From assembly GCA_035285545.1 (NCBI GenBank), contig JAYKGY010000066.1:1-49182 (forward strand): 49,182 nt of DNA. Reading direction: 5' to 3'. The position numbers are program-made. The stretch is from Snowella sp. (GTDB lineage: Bacteria > Cyanobacteriota > Cyanobacteriia > Cyanobacteriales > Microcystaceae). Shown in pieces: positions 24,001-33,000 of the stretch. Every line of letters begins with the position of its first letter. Position 1 is the stretch's first letter.

Positions 24001-27000
24001 TTGCAGGTCTTTGGTGGAGAAATTGTGGGAATTGCGGGGGTTTCAGGAAATGGTCAACGGGAATTAGTCGAAATTTTGGCAGGGCAACGGGCCACAACGG
24101 AAGGGCAAATCCGCATTAACGGTCAAGTTTATCGCTCAACTCGCCAAGAAATGTTTAACCATCAAGTTTTTATTCTGCCAGAAGAACCCCTACGGAATGC
24201 TTGTGTTCCGACGATGAGCGTGGCGGAAAATATGGCCCTCAGAACTTTTGACCGTGCCCCCCAAGCCAAGGGAGTTTGGCTAATTTTAAGCGCAATTCGG
24301 GAAATGGCAAGCGGATTAATTCACACCTTTTCCGTGAAAACTCCTTCCCCAGAAACACCGATTAGTAATCTTTCGGGTGGAAACGTGCAACGGGCTGTTC
24401 TTGCTAGGGAATTATCTTCTCCTGATATTAAAGTTTTGATTGCCGCGAATCCCTGTTTTGGTTTAGATTTTGCCGCAGTCGAATTTATTCATCAACAGAT
24501 TTTAGAAGCGAGAAACCGAGGGGTAGCCGTGTTACTGGTCAGTGAAGATTTGGATGAATTATTAAAATTGTCGGATCGCATTATGGTGATGAGTGAGGGG
24601 CGATTGGTGTACGAAAGTGAAACGGAATCAGCCGATATTACGATTATTGGTCAAAAAATGGCAGGACATTAACTATGATCACCATTAAAGCCCAACCCTA
24701 CGATTATGAAATTCCCGATCTACAAAGCCTTGCGCTGATCATTATTGATATGCAGCGAGATTTTTTAGAAGAAGGGGGATTTGGAGCCGCTTTGGGAAAT
24801 GATGTCAGCCCATTACGCGCCATTGTTCCCACTGTCAAAACCTTGTTAGAAACCTTTCGTCATCATCAATTACCGATTTTTCAAACTGTTGAAGGGCATC
24901 AACCTGATCTCTCTGACTGTCCACCGTCTAAATTAAAACGGGGTAATAGTTCTTTAAAAATTGGCGATCGCAGCACAATGGGACGAATTTTAATTTTAGG
25001 AGAAACGGGCAATCAAATTATTCCTGAATTAGAACCGCTACCCAATGAGATTATTATTTCTAAACCAGGCAAAGGGGCCTTTTATCAAACCGAATTGCAG
25101 ACTTATTTACAAGCGAAAGGGATTACTCACCTGATTTTTGCGGGTGTGACTACTGAAGTTTGCGTTCAGACGACCATGCGAGAAGCCAACGATCGCGGCT
25201 ATGAATGCTTATTAATTGAAGATGCAACCGCCAGTTATTTTCCCGAATTTAAGCAAGCAACCTTGGAAATGGTACGCGCTCAAGGCGGAATTGTCGGTTG
25301 GACGGCCTCTGCTAATAACGTGTTAGCTGCTTTAAGGTGATTTTTACAAATCTAAATTTTAGAAAAGCAAAAAAATTTAGGAATTTTCAGAGGATCAGTT
25401 TCAATCCCTCATAAGGCTTTGAATTAATTGCAATATTTAATCGAGTCTGGCGTTAGTGGTGCGGCTTTGTTTCAATCCCTCATAAGGCTTTGAATTAATT
25501 GCAATGTGTTACGCTTCCGTCTAGCCTCCGTTTTTTGTGGTTTCAATCCCTCATAAGGCTTTGAATTAATTGCAATATTAGCGTTTTTCTGGTGGTACTA
25601 AAAAAACTTTTTGTTTCAATCCCTCATAAGGCTTTGAATTAATTGCAATAACCGTTCTGGTACTGACCTGTAATGCCTTAGCTGTTTCAATCCCTCATAA
25701 GGCTTTGAATTAATTGCAATCAGTAACAGGTCTATTCGTGTAATATGGAGACTTGTTTCAATCCCTCATAAGGCTTTGAATTAATTGCAATAAGAAACCG
25801 TGATTCGGTTGCTCATTCTGGACTTTGTTTCAATCCCTCATAAGGCTTTGAATTAATTGCAATTGACCATTGGATTTCTCCTAAAAGTAGCTGCTCTGTT
25901 TCAATCCCTCATAAGGCTTTGAATTAATTGCAATGGGGGTGTGGAGCTTTGCGGTTTAAGACTTTACGTTTCAATCCCTCATAAGGCTTTGAATTAATTG
26001 CAATCTTTTGTCACCAGCCGCAAAAGCATAATATTCAATGTTTCAATCCCTCATAAGGCTTTGAATTAATTGCAATAGTTATCGTTGCCAGTAATGTCTT
26101 TCTCCATGTCAAGTTTCAATCCCTCATAAGGCTTTGAATTAATTGCAATGGTGATTGAGGCAACCGAGCCAAATACCCGTACTAGTTTCAATCCCTCATA
26201 AGGCTTTGAATTAATTGCAATACATCTCAGCTAGGGGAGGCAATTAAGACGGCTTTAGTTTCAATCCCTCATAAGGCTTTGAATTAATTGCAATGTAAAT
26301 GCTGACCATTGGTGCAAACTTTACGAATTGTTTCAATCCCTCATAAGGCTTTGAATTAATTGCAATGCTGAGCAAGCCGAACGGGAAAAAGAACGTTACA
26401 AGTTTCAATCCCTCATAAGGCTTTGAATTAATTGCAATTCGGGTTAGAGTCCAAATCAACCCCAATAGATTCGTTTCAATCCCTCATAAGGCTTTGAATT
26501 AATTGCAATCGAGGTTTATCCCACCAAAAGCCTGCTACATCTGCTGTTTCAATCCCTCATAAGGCTTTGAATTAATTGCAATCGTCAAATAGGGCTTTGT
26601 AGCAGTCGCTTTCGATGTTTCAATCCCTCATAAGGCTTTGAATTAATTGCAATTCGGGGTCGTCAACCTTTATAAAGCCAGAAACGTGTTTCAATCCCTC
26701 ATAAGGCTTTGAATTAATTGCAATCATGTTTTAAAAAATATGAAAGCTCATCTAAGCTACGTTTCAATCCCTCATAAGGCTTTGAATTAATTGCAATTTT
26801 TAGCTACTTCAGAGTCGGCAGGATATTCAGTGTTTCAATCCCTCATAAGGCTTTGAATTAATTGCAATGGCTGATGCGTTAACTTTTACGGATTAGATTA
26901 TTATGTTTCAATCCCTCATAAGGCTTTGAATTAATTGCAATACGGCCCGCCGCAAGGTCATTGTCCATGTTTAGGTAGGTTTCAATCCCTCATAAGGCTT

Positions 27001-30000: not shown

Positions 30001-33000
30001 CGATAAGTTGTTGCGTTTTTCTCCAATTTGACCCCCCTTTTTCCTGACGAGCTAAACTGCGCTGTAATCTTTGTAATCGCTTATAGTCTTGTTTTAAAAA
30101 TCTTGGATTAGGTACAGAACGACCATTGCTTAACGTTAAAAGGGTGACAATTCCAGGATCTATGCCGACTCTATTCTTATTATCAGGTAAAGGCTGAATA
30201 TCAGTATAAAAAACAAGATTTAAATAATAACCGTCTGCTTTTTTCGTTAAAGTTCCCGTTCGTGGCTGAATTTCACCCTTATTGCGATTATGTAAGCCTC
30301 GAAACTTAATTAAGCCAAATTCTTTTCCTAACAAAAGACAATCATTCGCTTCTGGATAAAATTTAATGCCCTCAGTTTGTTTATAAGGCAAAGAAGTGAC
30401 AGGAAACCGACGAGACTTAAATTTAAGCTTACGGGTATTATTTTTAGGGTCTTCATAACGTTTCCAAGCTTCTAAAAGGTGCATTGTAATACAAGCTTGT
30501 CTGATCTTCATGGGAATATCAATCAAACGCTCCACTTGCCATTGAGGAAGTAAACCAGAATTTTCAAGCCATTTGTTCGTATAACAATTATTGGTCGCGA
30601 TTTTTTTAGGATCTTCAACGTGCCAATAGGTTCGATAAGGAATCGAAAAATAACCATCTCGGTTGGTAATACGACACGCAAGAGCAAAAGTTTTATCTTT
30701 TTTACGCACTTCGTTTTCTTCTTTACTTAGCCAATCGCATTCTGGCAAAGCCTTTGTCCAGTGCCACTCAACAGGATAGGGATCAAAATTATCGAGTATA
30801 TTTAGGTCTGGAGCAATTTTGTTTAATTCTTTCGCACTCTTTTTGCGCCAAATTCTCTGTTGATTTTCGTAGAGCAGAGCAAGTCCCAAATTGTAGAGAG
30901 GTCTTAGGCTATTTGTCCATTTTTCAAATAGTGCTTGCTGAGGGCTGGTTAGATAAGCCTTAAGCTGAATTGTAAAGAGTGGCCTTTTTTCTGAGGTGGG
31001 GACTTCCATTAAATAATATTTTTAAGTGCGATAAGTTAAACAACCCAATAAATTGAACCCATTTCATTTTAGCTTGACGGCTCAATTATTGCAAAAACTT
31101 AAACGCGATCGCGCGCCTACTTTCTCCACGGCCACCGAGTTCCCATTTCCGTCATAGCTGAGAAAATCAGATATAGCACTAGTAAAGCTACCCCTGTCAG
31201 AAACGGTAATAAATCTTCTTTCATCATTGTTATCTCTTACTGAAAATAGCTAATTTACACTGTTGGTTACTTCCTAGACAATTACTTTATTGAATTACAA
31301 GATCGCTCATATCATTGAGCATCGGTTCTATGATAAATAGAAGATTAATGAAGCAGAGCAACTAAGGAGCAATGTTATCTATGGATGGGGAATTTTCGAC
31401 ATTAATGACGAATCCTTGGGGTCTTGCTGTTCTGTTAAATAGTTTGTTGTTGGCGATCGCGTTTATTTTGCCCAAGAAATTATTAACACCAATGGGTTAT
31501 CTCCATGCCTGGGTACTGGGGGTCATCGTCTGGGGAACCTTGGGATGGCGGGGTTATGCCGTTGTCATGTTCTATTTCTTGTTTGGTTCAGCCGTTACCC
31601 GTATAGGTATCAAGCAAAAGGAAGCCGAGGGCATTGCCGAAAAACGATCAGGGCAACGAGGGCCAGAAAATGTTTGGGGATCGGCCTTTACCGCTACCCT
31701 CTGTGCGTTATTAACCTTAGTCCTAGAACCCACTTGGCAGCCCTTGTTAATTTTGGGTTATGTGGCGAGCTTTAGCACCAAATTATCCGATACAACCGCC
31801 AGTGAAGTGGGGAAAGCCTACGGAAAACGCACTTTTTTAATTACGACCTTGCAACCTGTACCGAGAGGAACGGAAGGAGCCGTCAGCTTAGAAGGAACCT
31901 TAGCGGGAATCGTCGGATCGCTGTTAATTGCGGTGTTAGCTTGGGGTTTGGGGATGATTGATCTCTATGGGGTGGGTTGGTGCGCGATCGCTGCTTTTAT
32001 TGCTACCAATTTAGAAAGTGTGATCGGGGCAACCTTACAAAATCAATGGAACTGGTTAACCAACGAAGTCGTTAATGGGATTAATACCTTGATCGGGGCC
32101 GCGATCGCTATTGCGTTAGGAGCTTGGATTTAAATAATGACGAAACGGATGTTTGTGACAGGGGGAACGGGATTTGTTGGAGCCAATCTCATTCGTTTAT
32201 TGTTGGCCGAAGGTTATCACGTCAGAGCCTTAATTCGTCCCCAAAGTTGTTTCGATAATCTCGAAGGCTTAAATATCGAATGGGTGAAAGGAGATTTAAC
32301 AGATCGGAATTTGGCCGAAAAAATGCAGGGATGCGAGGGCTTATTCCATGTGGCGGCTCATTATTCTCTCTGGCAAAAAGACCGTGAGCAACTGTATCAA
32401 AGCAATGTGTTAGGGACTCGAAATATATTGGCTTCAGCAAAAAAAGCAGGGATTGAACGCTGCATTTATACCAGTTCCGTTGCCGCTATTGGGTTGGATA
32501 AAACAGGCGAACCTGTCGATGAACGCTTCCAAAGTCCTGTGGAAAATTTGGTGGGAGAATACAAAAAATCGAAGTATTGGGCAGAGCAAGAGGCGGTTAA
32601 AGCCGCTAAATCGGGGCAAGACGTAGTAATTGTTAACCCTAGCACTCCCATCGGCCCTTGGGATATTAAACCGACTCCGACGGGCGATATTATTCTGCGA
32701 TTTTTGCGGCGACAGATGCCTGCCTATGTGGAAACGGGGTTAAATCTCATTGATGTGCGGGATGTGGCCAAAGGTCATCTTCTTGCTTGGGAAAAGGGCA
32801 AAAGCGGAGATCGCTATATTCTGGGTCATCAAAACGTGAGTCTGAAAAATATGTTAGAAATGCTATCGGAGATCACAGGATTACCCGCCCCGAAAAATAC
32901 CGTTCCCTTATGGTTGCCCCTAACCGTTGCCTGGGTTGATGAAAATGTATTAGCTCCTTTGGGTAAAACGCCCTCTGTCCCCTTAGATGGGGTAAAAATG

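Follow-up and report, generated by a model that had tools for sequence, protein, structure and literature searches.

What RNA, if any, does the C2c8 nuclease of CRISPR subtype V-U2 use besides its guides? The subtype was reportedly defined in a 2017 paper, as a putative CRISPR-Cas system of cyanobacteria. The usual obstacle to testing such small effectors is that the RNA partner is not known. A 2024 review, in the sections available to us, lists a characterised function for four of the five original V-U groups (V-U1 is Cas12m, V-U3 is Cas12f1, V-U4 is Cas12n, and V-U5 is Cas12k) and none for V-U2, and its table gives neither a PAM nor a size for V-U2 (PMC11641405). The portion consulted of a paper on cyanophage CL131 reports that a tracrRNA was not found (PMC6293099).

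We analysed a 49,182-nt stretch of DNA from Snowella sp. (contig JAYKGY010000066.1; "the window") that encodes C2c8 next to a CRISPR array. The link between V-U2 and arrays was already known. What is new is a candidate scaffold RNA of about 200 nt, for one sub-branch of the family; no guide-scaffold RNA is named for V-U2 in the parts of the literature that we consulted.

A C2c8 gene and an array on one island

The c2c8 gene (29537..31009, - strand) encodes 490 amino acids. The protein matches the NCBIfam model V_cas_c2c8 (NF038192) at positions 2-457 of 457 with 422.6 bits (the cut-off is 350), and its top PADLOC match is Cas12u2 (E 4.8e-126). It also matches OrfB_IS605 and Cas12f1-like_TNB from Pfam and passes the guided_TnpB subfamily model (198 bits vs. 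a cut-off of 100). In an alignment to ISDra2 TnpB (E 1.6e-20), the RuvC triad (D284, E369, and D470) and the CxxC..CxxC cysteines of the Zn ribbon (C441, C444, C460, and C463) are in place. The identification in the preliminary description therefore stands: these matches identify a bona fide C2c8 whose catalytic triad and Zn ribbon are intact. The gene is single-copy in this genome, where the search returned one full-length match and two distant TnpBs. PADLOC models for Cas12f, which have no curated cut-off, match too (E 7.6e-119), and the locus resembles Cas12f (V-F) and other tracrRNA-dependent miniature type V systems in having a small RuvC effector, a candidate non-coding RNA between effector and array, and repeats that end in ...UGMAAC beside the spacer. 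We rejected membership in Cas12f because the NCBIfam model CRISPR_Cas12f2 gives just 72.5 bits against a cut-off of 450. As in V-U2, a TnpB-sized effector with RuvC and Zn ribbon motifs adjoins an array, with no adaptation module at the locus.

The array (25398..29036, - strand) has 51 identical 37-nt repeats and 50 spacers of 33-38 nt, all different. Its leader end is at 29036, exactly 500 nt from the stop codon of c2c8, as originally described. On the - strand, the 3' end of the repeat reads ...GGGAUUGAAAC. All 51 matches to the repeat lie inside the array, and a search that allowed up to 3 mismatches found no further copies elsewhere in the genome. The Rfam model CRISPR-DR5 matches the repeat on the - strand below its threshold (31.4 vs. 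40 bits). Arrays at eight other C2c8 loci (L033, L038, L032, L031, L046, L048, L050, and L057) have the same orientation. The genome also contains a V-K CAST (Cas12k with a tracrRNA, on contig C94), whose 37-nt repeats are of the same broad family as those of the window; Cas12k is a different effector, nuclease-dead, in a Tn7-like element. The two arrays have no common spacers, and their longest common word is 9 nt.

Elsewhere in the genome, the spacers match at most 18 nt without a mismatch, 19 nt with one, or 20 nt with two; the earlier limit of 18 nt holds for perfect matches. As before, there was no match in 50,697 phage records. Because our searches, which included these records, found no protospacers, the array yields no PAM and no sign of interference.

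The array, leader, block, gene, and about 315 nt upstream form an accessory island (approximately 25345..31325, - strand) that is absent from another genome of the same genus (G456). There, the sequences that flank the island (23001-25346, 87% identical, and 31364-33200, 89% identical) occur on a single contig with about 195 nt between them. The flanks show no similarity by tblastx to the related locus in genome G228. These observations support a single island of about 6 kb whose parts move together. It also contains, upstream of c2c8, a dispersed repeat of about 135 nt (31090..31225) with 85-88% matches on another contig of this genome (C150) and in two other genomes (G454 and G218). The neighbouring ORFs are metabolic or transport genes according to profile scans, and we saw no TnpA, IS ends, or transposase among the neighbours that were scanned.

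The island bears on a caveat that had been raised at the outset, that the array might belong to the I-B or I-MYXAN-type systems of the genome. More broadly, the array might serve mainly a class 1 system (I-B/I-MYXAN with Cas6, or I-D), with C2c8 as a TnpB-like passenger beside it. The repeat does end in AUUGAAAC after a small hairpin, which we take to be a Cas6-type layout. The genome does encode I-B genes on contigs C50 (cas6-cas3-cas8b-cas7b-cas5) and C129 (cas8b-cas7b-cas5b), and no array belonging to them was found in the assembly. Furthermore, cas6d lies directly upstream of c2c8 in three other genomes (G204, G445, and G444), in one of which (G204) cas2d is retained between c2c8 and the array. 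A preprint, in the part available to us, proposes that a single I-D adaptation machinery serves I-D, III, V-K, and V-U2 arrays (10.1101/2021.02.06.429022). Nevertheless, array and gene arrived together and are jointly absent from G456, and this speaks against an array that is simply part of the I-B systems. The module also recurs with unrelated flanks, and profile scans found no class 1 cas genes (Cas6 or Cascade) within the island; the I-B genes are on other contigs. Shared crRNAs or shared adaptation would in any case be compatible with use by C2c8. We therefore consider a mainly class 1 array to be quite improbable. As for where new spacers come from, neither cas1 nor cas2 was found in this 95%-complete assembly, and Cas6d and Cas2d from G204 had no match in it. 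Acquisition in trans is plausible.

A candidate structured RNA between the gene and the leader

Between the stop codon of c2c8 and the array lie a conserved block of about 180-209 nt and then the leader (29037..29258, - strand). The leader is poorly conserved overall (50.9% identical to that of G228), with short motifs that recur, in our by-eye reading of intergenic sequences, in the leaders of other C2c8-linked arrays. The block also occurs in G228 (L033) and on a metagenome contig of 1179 nt (L038), and in both a leader and then an array come after it in the orientation of the gene. Thus the order of gene, block, leader, and array that had been described is kept in 3 of the 3 loci of this sub-branch that have downstream DNA. 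We did not detect the block beyond G228 among 26 other loci (nhmmer and blastn), and no Rfam family matched it.

The block had been called nearly identical across loci. This is correct for L038 and for an 88-nt core in G228 (78 of 88 positions, 88.6%), but not for the whole block in G228, which is 71.7% identical and lacks 19 nt. For comparison, the identity to G228 is 64.7% in the coding sequence and 50.0% in the upstream region. The block was also said to lie just 3' of the gene, but its structured part (29279..29458, - strand) begins about 80 nt past the stop codon.

In this structured core, helix P1 (9 bp) closes around five hairpins. The predicted fold has a minimum free energy of -58 kcal/mol (z = -3.63), and none of 200 shuffled sequences was as stable. 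One of the hairpins is capped by a GNRA tetraloop in all three aligned sequences (GAAA, GCGA, and GCAA). The alignment comprises three block sequences from two real lineages, and the structure was derived from those same sequences; within it, six helices with 34 pairs are paired in 95.9% of cells. Both sides changed at 7 pairs, a number reached by 1 of 500 shuffles, while slid controls gave 0-1, and these compensatory changes are spread over four helices. Covariation, fold, and conservation together support the view that the block behaves like a structured RNA.

There is also a hint that the block is transcribed. In a metatranscriptomic library, one unstranded run (X3) yielded a single 209-nt contig, at a depth of 2.7 and with 0 differences, that coincides with 29259-29467; such a contig shows no true ends, and RNA libraries can contain DNA. 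We use its extent (29259..29467, - strand) for the candidate scaffold RNA, which would be tracrRNA- or scoutRNA-like. Immediately upstream is a motif (29469..29486, - strand) with the consensus GAAC-N-TTGA-N-AAC, which resembles a promoter. It is found 18-55 nt past the c2c8 stop codon in five loci (the window, L033, L034, L046, and L057), 40-140 nt upstream of the first repeats in three (L034, L050, and L033), and right after the stop codon of cas12k on C94. We infer that it may act as a promoter.

Does the RNA contact the repeat?

The preliminary description had proposed that the block is a tracrRNA whose AAUCCCU pairs with GGGAUU in the repeat. The complementarity is present. A stretch that is predicted to be unpaired, UUAAUCCCUU (29294..29303, - strand), follows the last hairpin and precedes a U-run, and its complement, GAGGGAUUGA, is found in the 3' half of the repeat. 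This putative anti-repeat amounts to 7-10 bp, and its AAUCCC core is invariant and unpaired in all three block sequences. The energetic evidence is another matter. The site that RNAduplex selects in the block, 233-255 nt past the stop codon, scores z = -1.69 in the window (2/30) and z = -1.07 in G228 (3/30), and overall z ranged from -1 to -2.4; once the tail of the ORF is added, another site in the window scores better. When the RNA was cofolded with the real repeat, there was no gain over shuffled repeats (71/100, 61/100, and 41/100 shuffles reached the observed value), and the minimum-free-energy dimer does not use AAUCCC. The tracrRNA proposal is thus supported only in part: the block behaves like a structured RNA and the short complementarity exists, but the pairing is weak in RNAduplex and no better than with shuffled repeats in cofolding. 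The block might just as well end in a direct copy of the repeat hairpin that has degenerated.

Two other C2c8 clades contain similar elements, complementary to GGGAYUG and with a U-run. The repeat of G334 (L032) contains GGGACUG, and the intergenic region there contains CAGUCCC and a U-run after a hairpin; a second arm pairs as well (E -19.8, reached by 8 of 200 shuffles). In the sister clade of Microcystis type (L046, L034, and L057), CAAUCCCUUA and a U-run lie inside the 3' tail of the ORF. No significant pairing site was found in two other array-linked loci, L031 (72/200 shuffles) and L048 (57/200).

Some miniature Cas12 types lack a tracrRNA and use the crRNA alone. C2c8 might do the same, in which case the block would be a real structured RNA without being a guide partner: a stable 5' part of the pre-crRNA leader, a regulatory RNA, or a relic omega-RNA. 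The lack of a specific gain in cofolding fits this alternative. So does the promoter-like motif, which also heads ordinary array leaders, so that the block occupies the place expected for the start of a leader transcript; and other C2c8 loci have just 98-170 nt from stop codon to array and no such block, which nhmmer and blastn did not find in the 26 loci. However, it would be unusual for a leader to contain an 88-nt core that exceeds the coding sequence in conservation and shows compensatory changes in four helices, and the actual leader past the block is only about 51% identical. Also, proteins of this size in the TnpB family depend on a large RNA scaffold, as described for ISDra2 in the part of that structural study available to us (PMC10097598), and a 37-nt repeat alone would be small for this. 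We consider an RNA without a partner role to be unlikely.

The structured RNA may instead be the missing guide partner of the V-U2 nuclease. It would differ from a classical tracrRNA in that its anti-repeat is much shorter and is not favoured thermodynamically. A closer parallel is the scoutRNA of Cas12c and Cas12d, a structured RNA with a few nucleotides complementary to the repeat, although those effectors are of an unrelated lineage and the complementarity here is somewhat longer (7-10 nt).

Our explanation of the whole locus, which we hold at about even confidence, is a self-contained, horizontally acquired V-U2 module with a split-off scaffold RNA that docks on the repeats. C2c8 would be a TnpB-derived nuclease with an active-looking RuvC site, and its guides would come from the adjoining 51-repeat array, transcribed from the leader in the direction of the gene. 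The RNA of about 200 nt would be the scaffold, that is, the part of an ancestral TnpB omega-RNA that was separated from the guide, and would be made from its own promoter-like motif. Its unpaired UUAAUCCCUU, ahead of the U-run, would dock on GGGAUUG in the 3' half of the repeat, beside the spacer, and most of the binding energy would come from the protein. DNA that matches the spacer would then be cut by this complex. New spacers would be acquired in trans via Cas1-Cas2 of a class 1 system (I-D or I-B type) outside this assembly.

Locus layouts across the C2c8 family

At 12 of 28 C2c8 loci across the family, an array or mini-array in the orientation of the gene follows it directly, and a plasmid of Microcystis aeruginosa NIES-2481 carries an annotated c2c8 with an adjoining array. 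The six top-scoring members (L040-L045) are array-less, and the ends of their ORFs run into sequence that ends in GGTTGCAAG, like a single-guide omega-RNA. The locus layouts of the family appear to include single guides, mini-arrays, and captured I-D-type arrays, a range that is described here for the first time.

The array-less members raise the question of whether C2c8 and the block could together form a TnpB-like element that homes or regulates by means of one fixed guide and for which the array is irrelevant. TnpB with its omega-RNA (IS200/IS605; 8BF8, 8EXA, and 8H1J) is indeed the closest solved natural relative of C2c8. But elsewhere in the C2c8 family a UUG(C/A)AA(G/C) motif precedes guides and spacers, and the block does not end in this motif; no TnpA or IS ends were seen; and neither the spacers nor the sequence adjacent to the block had a match in the genome. 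A fixed guide at this locus seems very improbable. We also rejected classification as an IS200/IS605 TnpB element, because the RNA starts about 70-80 nt past the stop codon, without overlapping the ORF and without a contiguous guide, and the 51-repeat array gives the guides.

The spread of layouts recalls the transposon-CRISPR intermediates (TranC) and the proposed "RNA splitting" origin of type V systems. Like TranC, this TnpB-like family spans single guides, mini-arrays that abut the ORF, and true arrays. In contrast, LaTranC (9JFO/9JFQ) matches weakly (E 1.5e-5), and the C2c8 family, which is cyanobacterial, has apparently captured arrays of I-D type. A bolder reading, which we offer tentatively and think somewhat doubtful, is that the family preserves the full path from TnpB to CRISPR effector: a single guide in the style of omega-RNA, then mini-arrays in which the first repeat overlaps the stop codon, then entry into resident I-D loci (downstream of cas6d and ahead of cas2 or the array), whose arrays are used through a scaffold RNA that has split off. 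The sub-branch in the window would be the most derived, with its scaffold outside the ORF, a promoter of its own like those of array leaders and the V-K tracrRNA, and a scoutRNA-like contact, and V-U2 would be a class 2 effector that depends on the adaptation and arrays of a class 1 type (I-D).

With mapped helices, a proposed contact with the repeat, and a natural array of 51 repeats, the candidate scaffold of about 200 nt allows reconstitution, PAM screens, and the design of single guides to begin at once. In the family survey there is a natural series in which to study how a nuclease of transposon origin takes up the CRISPR array of its host, and how adaptation and arrays are shared between class 2 effectors and class 1 systems.

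A V-U2 effector and its array on a mobile island

The gene c2c8 (29537-31009, reverse strand) encodes a protein of 490 amino acids, which the preliminary description had assigned to subtype V-U2 (C2c8) and credited with RuvC D/E/D residues and zinc-finger cysteines. We confirmed both points. The protein covers the whole NCBIfam model V_cas_c2c8 with 422.6 bits (the cut-off is 350), and its top match in PADLOC is Cas12u2 (E = 4.8e-126). It also scores above the cut-off of the guided_TnpB subfamily model, and Pfam places an OrfB_IS605 domain and a Cas12f1-like TNB domain on it. 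The nearest solved natural protein is the TnpB of ISDra2 (E = 1.6e-20), and the alignment to it places D284, E369, D470 and a CxxC..CxxC zinc ribbon. Complete and mobile, the locus genuinely belongs to subtype V-U2, which was already known.

V-U loci have been presented as TnpB homologues beside arrays, without adaptation modules and with their function pending (PMC6452270), and V-U appears among the candidates in a survey of TnpB and Cas12 (PMC10691335) and in the 2025 classification (PMC12669027). The table of a 2024 review still gives neither PAM nor size for V-U2/C2c8 (PMC11641405). For cyanophage CL131, a V-U2 locus is reported in which no tracrRNA could be detected (PMC6293099). In the literature that we searched, we found neither a functional study of V-U2 nor a guide RNA for it; subscription papers or supplements may hold one.

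Recounting the array (25398-29036) gave the same figures as before: 51 exact copies of a 37-nt repeat and 50 differing spacers of 33-38 nt, with 500 nt between the stop codon of c2c8 and the first repeat. All 51 matches to the repeat in the genome (with up to 3 mismatches) lie inside this array. In the orientation of c2c8, the 3' end of the repeat is ...GGGAUUGAAAC, and a sub-threshold match to Rfam CRISPR-DR5 is on that strand too. A search with the whole array again found no match in 50,697 phage records. Among plasmids, 5 records matched, repeat to repeat and never through a spacer; 22-mers from 5 of the 50 spacers had no match in IMG/VR, and we found no self-targets of the spacers in the genome. 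At window positions 28990-29036, a contig of sequencing run X2 (a different metagenome with a 96.7%-identical strain) passes from the leader across a lone repeat straight to the flank at the array's far end; either the array has one repeat in that strain or the assembly collapsed it. Joints in another run (X7, likeness threshold 88) connect the leader-proximal repeat to different spacers, a weak hint of spacer turnover.

C2c8 is absent from all 5 other genomes of the genus. In one of these (G456), a single contig carries both flanks of the island (87% and 89% identical), separated by ~195 nt, so the ~6 kb at ~25345-31325 is an insertion, with an isochorismatase-family gene on one side and a DUF92 gene on the other. 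Furthermore, tblastx found no similarity between the window's flanks and the orthologous locus in G228. The empty site and the unrelated flanks show gene, RNA, leader and array moving as one unit, and a mobile unit argues against a chance neighbourhood. A ~135-nt sequence upstream of c2c8 (31090-31225), perhaps a dispersed repeat of the MITE kind at the island's edge, has copies of 85-88% identity on contig C150 and in two further genomes of this genus.

The assembly (151 contigs, 95% complete) contains other CRISPR loci. Contig C50 (7.8 kb) carries cas6 (MYXAN/Cas6b type)-cas3-cas8b-cas7b-cas5, and the end of contig C129 (12768-19045 of L062) carries WYL-cas8b-cas7b-cas5b; both type I-B-like operons reach contig ends, and neither has an array or adaptation genes in the assembly. 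On contig C94 (2725-6101 of L061), a Cas12k (PADLOC E = 1.2e-287) adjoins an array whose 14 repeats are unusually many for V-K; a type I restriction-modification system follows. Rfam identified no V-K tracrRNA family on C94. A preprint reports spacers common to V-K, III, I-D and V-U2 arrays and suggests that I-D adaptation serves them all (10.1101/2021.02.06.429022). In this genome, no spacer occurs in both the V-K and the V-U2 array. Pfam Cas1, Cas2 and Cas6_C had no match in the 95%-complete assembly, and neither Cas6d nor Cas2d of G204, a genome from a sister clade, had a homolog in this incomplete assembly. The starts of contigs C100, C128 and C141 and the end of C34 share a ~120-nt element; probably this marks one end of a mobile element whose multiple copies break up the assembly.

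C2c8 loci in other genomes

C2c8 proteins above the cut-off are present in 6 of 401 genomes sampled across the phylum, 7 of 89 sampled within the family and 19 of 401 sampled within the order (each count includes this genome). We examined 28 loci. A full array lies downstream in the gene's orientation at 9 of them, and three more (L058, L054 and L051) have mini-arrays (4-6 repeats) that begin at the stop codon, which the first repeat overlaps or abuts. By eye, L049 has two such repeats. At 5 of the 28 loci the array is upstream of c2c8, and 4 run into a contig end or show nothing that we could recognise. Six close relatives with the top model scores (L040-L045) have no array, and the ends of their ORFs run into ...GGTTGCAAG; by analogy, these ends resemble a single-guide omega-RNA. 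In L044 (genome G732), the ORF's last ~45 nt are doubled in tandem past the stop codon, with GGTTGCAAG missing from the end of the second copy; such a duplication may show how a repeat begins to form. In L035 (G172; 9280-11354), a frameshift splits c2c8 into frames of 115 and 579 amino acids, and the array is upstream and points away from the gene.

In a quick IQ-TREE search (SH-aLRT support only), the window's protein groups with those of G228 and G436 (100), followed by L049 and a clade of G204, G445 and G444 (98). In these last three genomes, c2c8 sits inside a type I-D locus, with cas6d directly upstream; it looks as if c2c8 had been inserted there and had replaced cas4 and cas1. In G204, cas2d and a lone degenerate repeat lie between c2c8 and a 107-repeat array, and the tail of the ORF contains a 10-nt insert that resembles a repeat end. 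One spacer of this array matches the cyanophage MaMV-DH01 (33/34 by BLAST), with mismatches distal to the repeat and GTC on the 5' side of the protospacer. This single case agrees with the orientation that we chose and with acquisition at a GTN-type motif. Microcystis phage Ma-LMM01 (411-590 of L073) carries, three times over, the 37-nt repeat found in the Microcystis C2c8/I-D arrays, differing in the last base only and preceded by a TATAAT-like box. These copies make up a phage-borne mini-array, and four MaMV phage records show the same.

A conserved block between effector and leader

Between c2c8 and the leader (29037-29258) lies a block (29259-29467, reverse strand) that holds a conserved, structured and probably expressed RNA, and this is the new element of the locus. 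The block is common to the window, the G228 locus and a 1179-nt metagenome contig (L038). It had been described as nearly identical among loci, which is apt for L038 and for an 88-nt core in G228 (88.6% nucleotide identity to the window) but not for the whole block of G228, which is 71.7% identical and lacks 19 nt of one hairpin. The core is kept clearly better than the gene, whose coding sequence is 64.7% identical; the leader and the region upstream of the gene are 50.9% and 50.0% identical.

An exact 20-mer from the core matched metagenome contigs in L038 only, viral contigs nowhere, and genome contigs just once, by chance, in an unrelated Thalassospira record. When we searched 27 other C2c8 loci with blastn and nhmmer, G228 alone had the block; two extra short matches were to a promoter-like motif. 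We found the block neither in G436, where the third ortholog lies on a 1703-nt contig, nor in G492, and Rfam assigned it to no family at E up to 10.

The 180-nt version of the window's block folds with -58 kcal/mol (z = -3.63; none of 200 shuffles were as good), while the fold of the G228 block is weaker (z = -2.11; 7 shuffles reach it). In the structure that we defined from the block sequences themselves, the two ends meet in a 9-bp closing helix, which encloses all of the hairpins: a 4-bp hairpin, a 5-bp helix around a 5-bp hairpin, and a hairpin of variable length, whose cap in each of the three sequences is a GNRA tetraloop (GAAA, GCGA and GCAA). There is also a 6-bp hairpin whose AGAUUA loop is invariant. 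Across the alignment of the three sequences, which represent two real lineages and from which the structure was itself derived, the 34 pairs are 95.9% paired and 7 have changes on both sides (1 of 500 shuffles reaches this). As a control, sliding the partners by 1-3 columns left 31-47% pairing and 0-1 pairs with changes on both sides.

Of 21 public sequencing runs listed for 28990-31020, one is a metatranscriptomic (RNA) library (X3). Its single contig here, of 209 nt at depth 2.7 and without differences, coincides with the block (29259-29467) and extends beyond the closing helix by 9 nt on the upstream side and 20 nt on the downstream side. Because the contig has neither strand nor true ends, and because RNA libraries can contain DNA, this is a hint of expression, short of proof. 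c2c8, the leader and the array have no cover in X3, which is uninformative because these are contig data. The DNA contig of run X2 spans 29000-31020 unbroken with 66 differences. Runs with small shares (X5, X6 and X8-X21) were set aside.

Directly upstream of the start of the X3 contig is the motif GAAC-N-TTGA-N-AAC. It also occurs 18-55 nt past the c2c8 stop codon at 5 loci, 40-140 nt upstream of the first repeats of 3 arrays, and immediately after the stop codon of cas12k on C94. We read the motif as a putative promoter element shared by these loci.

Pairing between the block RNA and the repeat

The preliminary description had proposed that the block is a tracrRNA whose AAUCCCU could pair with GGGAUU in the repeat. 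The complementarity is there: between the last hairpin and a U-run, the unpaired UUAAUCCCUU (29294-29303) is complementary to the repeat's GAGGGAUUGA. Its AAUCCC core is invariant among the block sequences and is untouched among the differences listed for runs X2, X4 and X7. Analogous elements occur at other loci. In G334 (L032), the repeat has GGGACUG and the intergenic region has CAGUCCC, with a hairpin before it and a U-run after it; a second arm pairs as well (E = -19.8; 8 of 200 shuffles reach this). In the sister clade (L046, L034 and L057), CAAUCCCUUA and a U-run lie 124-168 nt before the stop codon, where the ORF has a 3' extension rich in hairpins; by analogy, this is the place expected for a TnpB-style RNA.

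Other results speak against pairing. Duplexes of the block site with the repeat are unremarkable (z = -1.69, 2/30, in the window; z = -1.07, 3/30, in G228). Cofolding of the 190-212-nt RNA with the repeat gained just -3.3 to -4.0 kcal/mol, which shuffled repeats reached in 71, 61 and 41 of 100 cases, and the predicted dimer does not use AAUCCC. The tracrRNA proposal is supported only in part. Any pairing has to be short and assisted by the protein, which resembles a scoutRNA rather than a classical tracrRNA. The tail of the block may be an inverted or, equally well, a direct degenerate copy of the repeat hairpin.

When the tail of the ORF was added to the search, the window's best site shifted into the ORF (29719-29742; E = -19.3, reached by 2 of 200 shuffles; the same site in L038). 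We rejected this anti-repeat because the best ORF site of G228 is at a non-homologous codon position, because the G228 segment favours the window's repeat (-18.1) over its own (-16.0), and because a synonymous difference at 29732 in X2 would break one pair. We also dropped a complementarity, seen by eye, of CCUUUGAAU in the block to the repeat's 5' half, which L033 (the G228 locus) and L038 do not keep. Two other array-linked loci, L031 and L048, have no significant sites for pairing with their repeats (72 and 57 of 200 shuffles reach them). In these two and in L050, a 9-bp helix could join the ORF tails to AUACCU in the repeats, and by eye two of its pairs change on both sides. This helix lies across a conserved Gly/Arg-Cys coding motif and alone is non-significant in 2 of the 3 loci; we treat it as a lead only.

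The main rival explanation, which we consider unlikely, is that the block is a structured leader or a regulatory RNA. A cofold no better than with shuffled repeats leaves room for it; a core that is kept better than the coding sequence and has pairs with changes on both sides would be unusual in a leader. We give roughly even odds that the block RNA is the scaffold RNA of the effector, that is, a split omega-RNA that would touch the repeat via a short anti-repeat. This claim of a scaffold RNA for V-U2 is directly testable at the bench.
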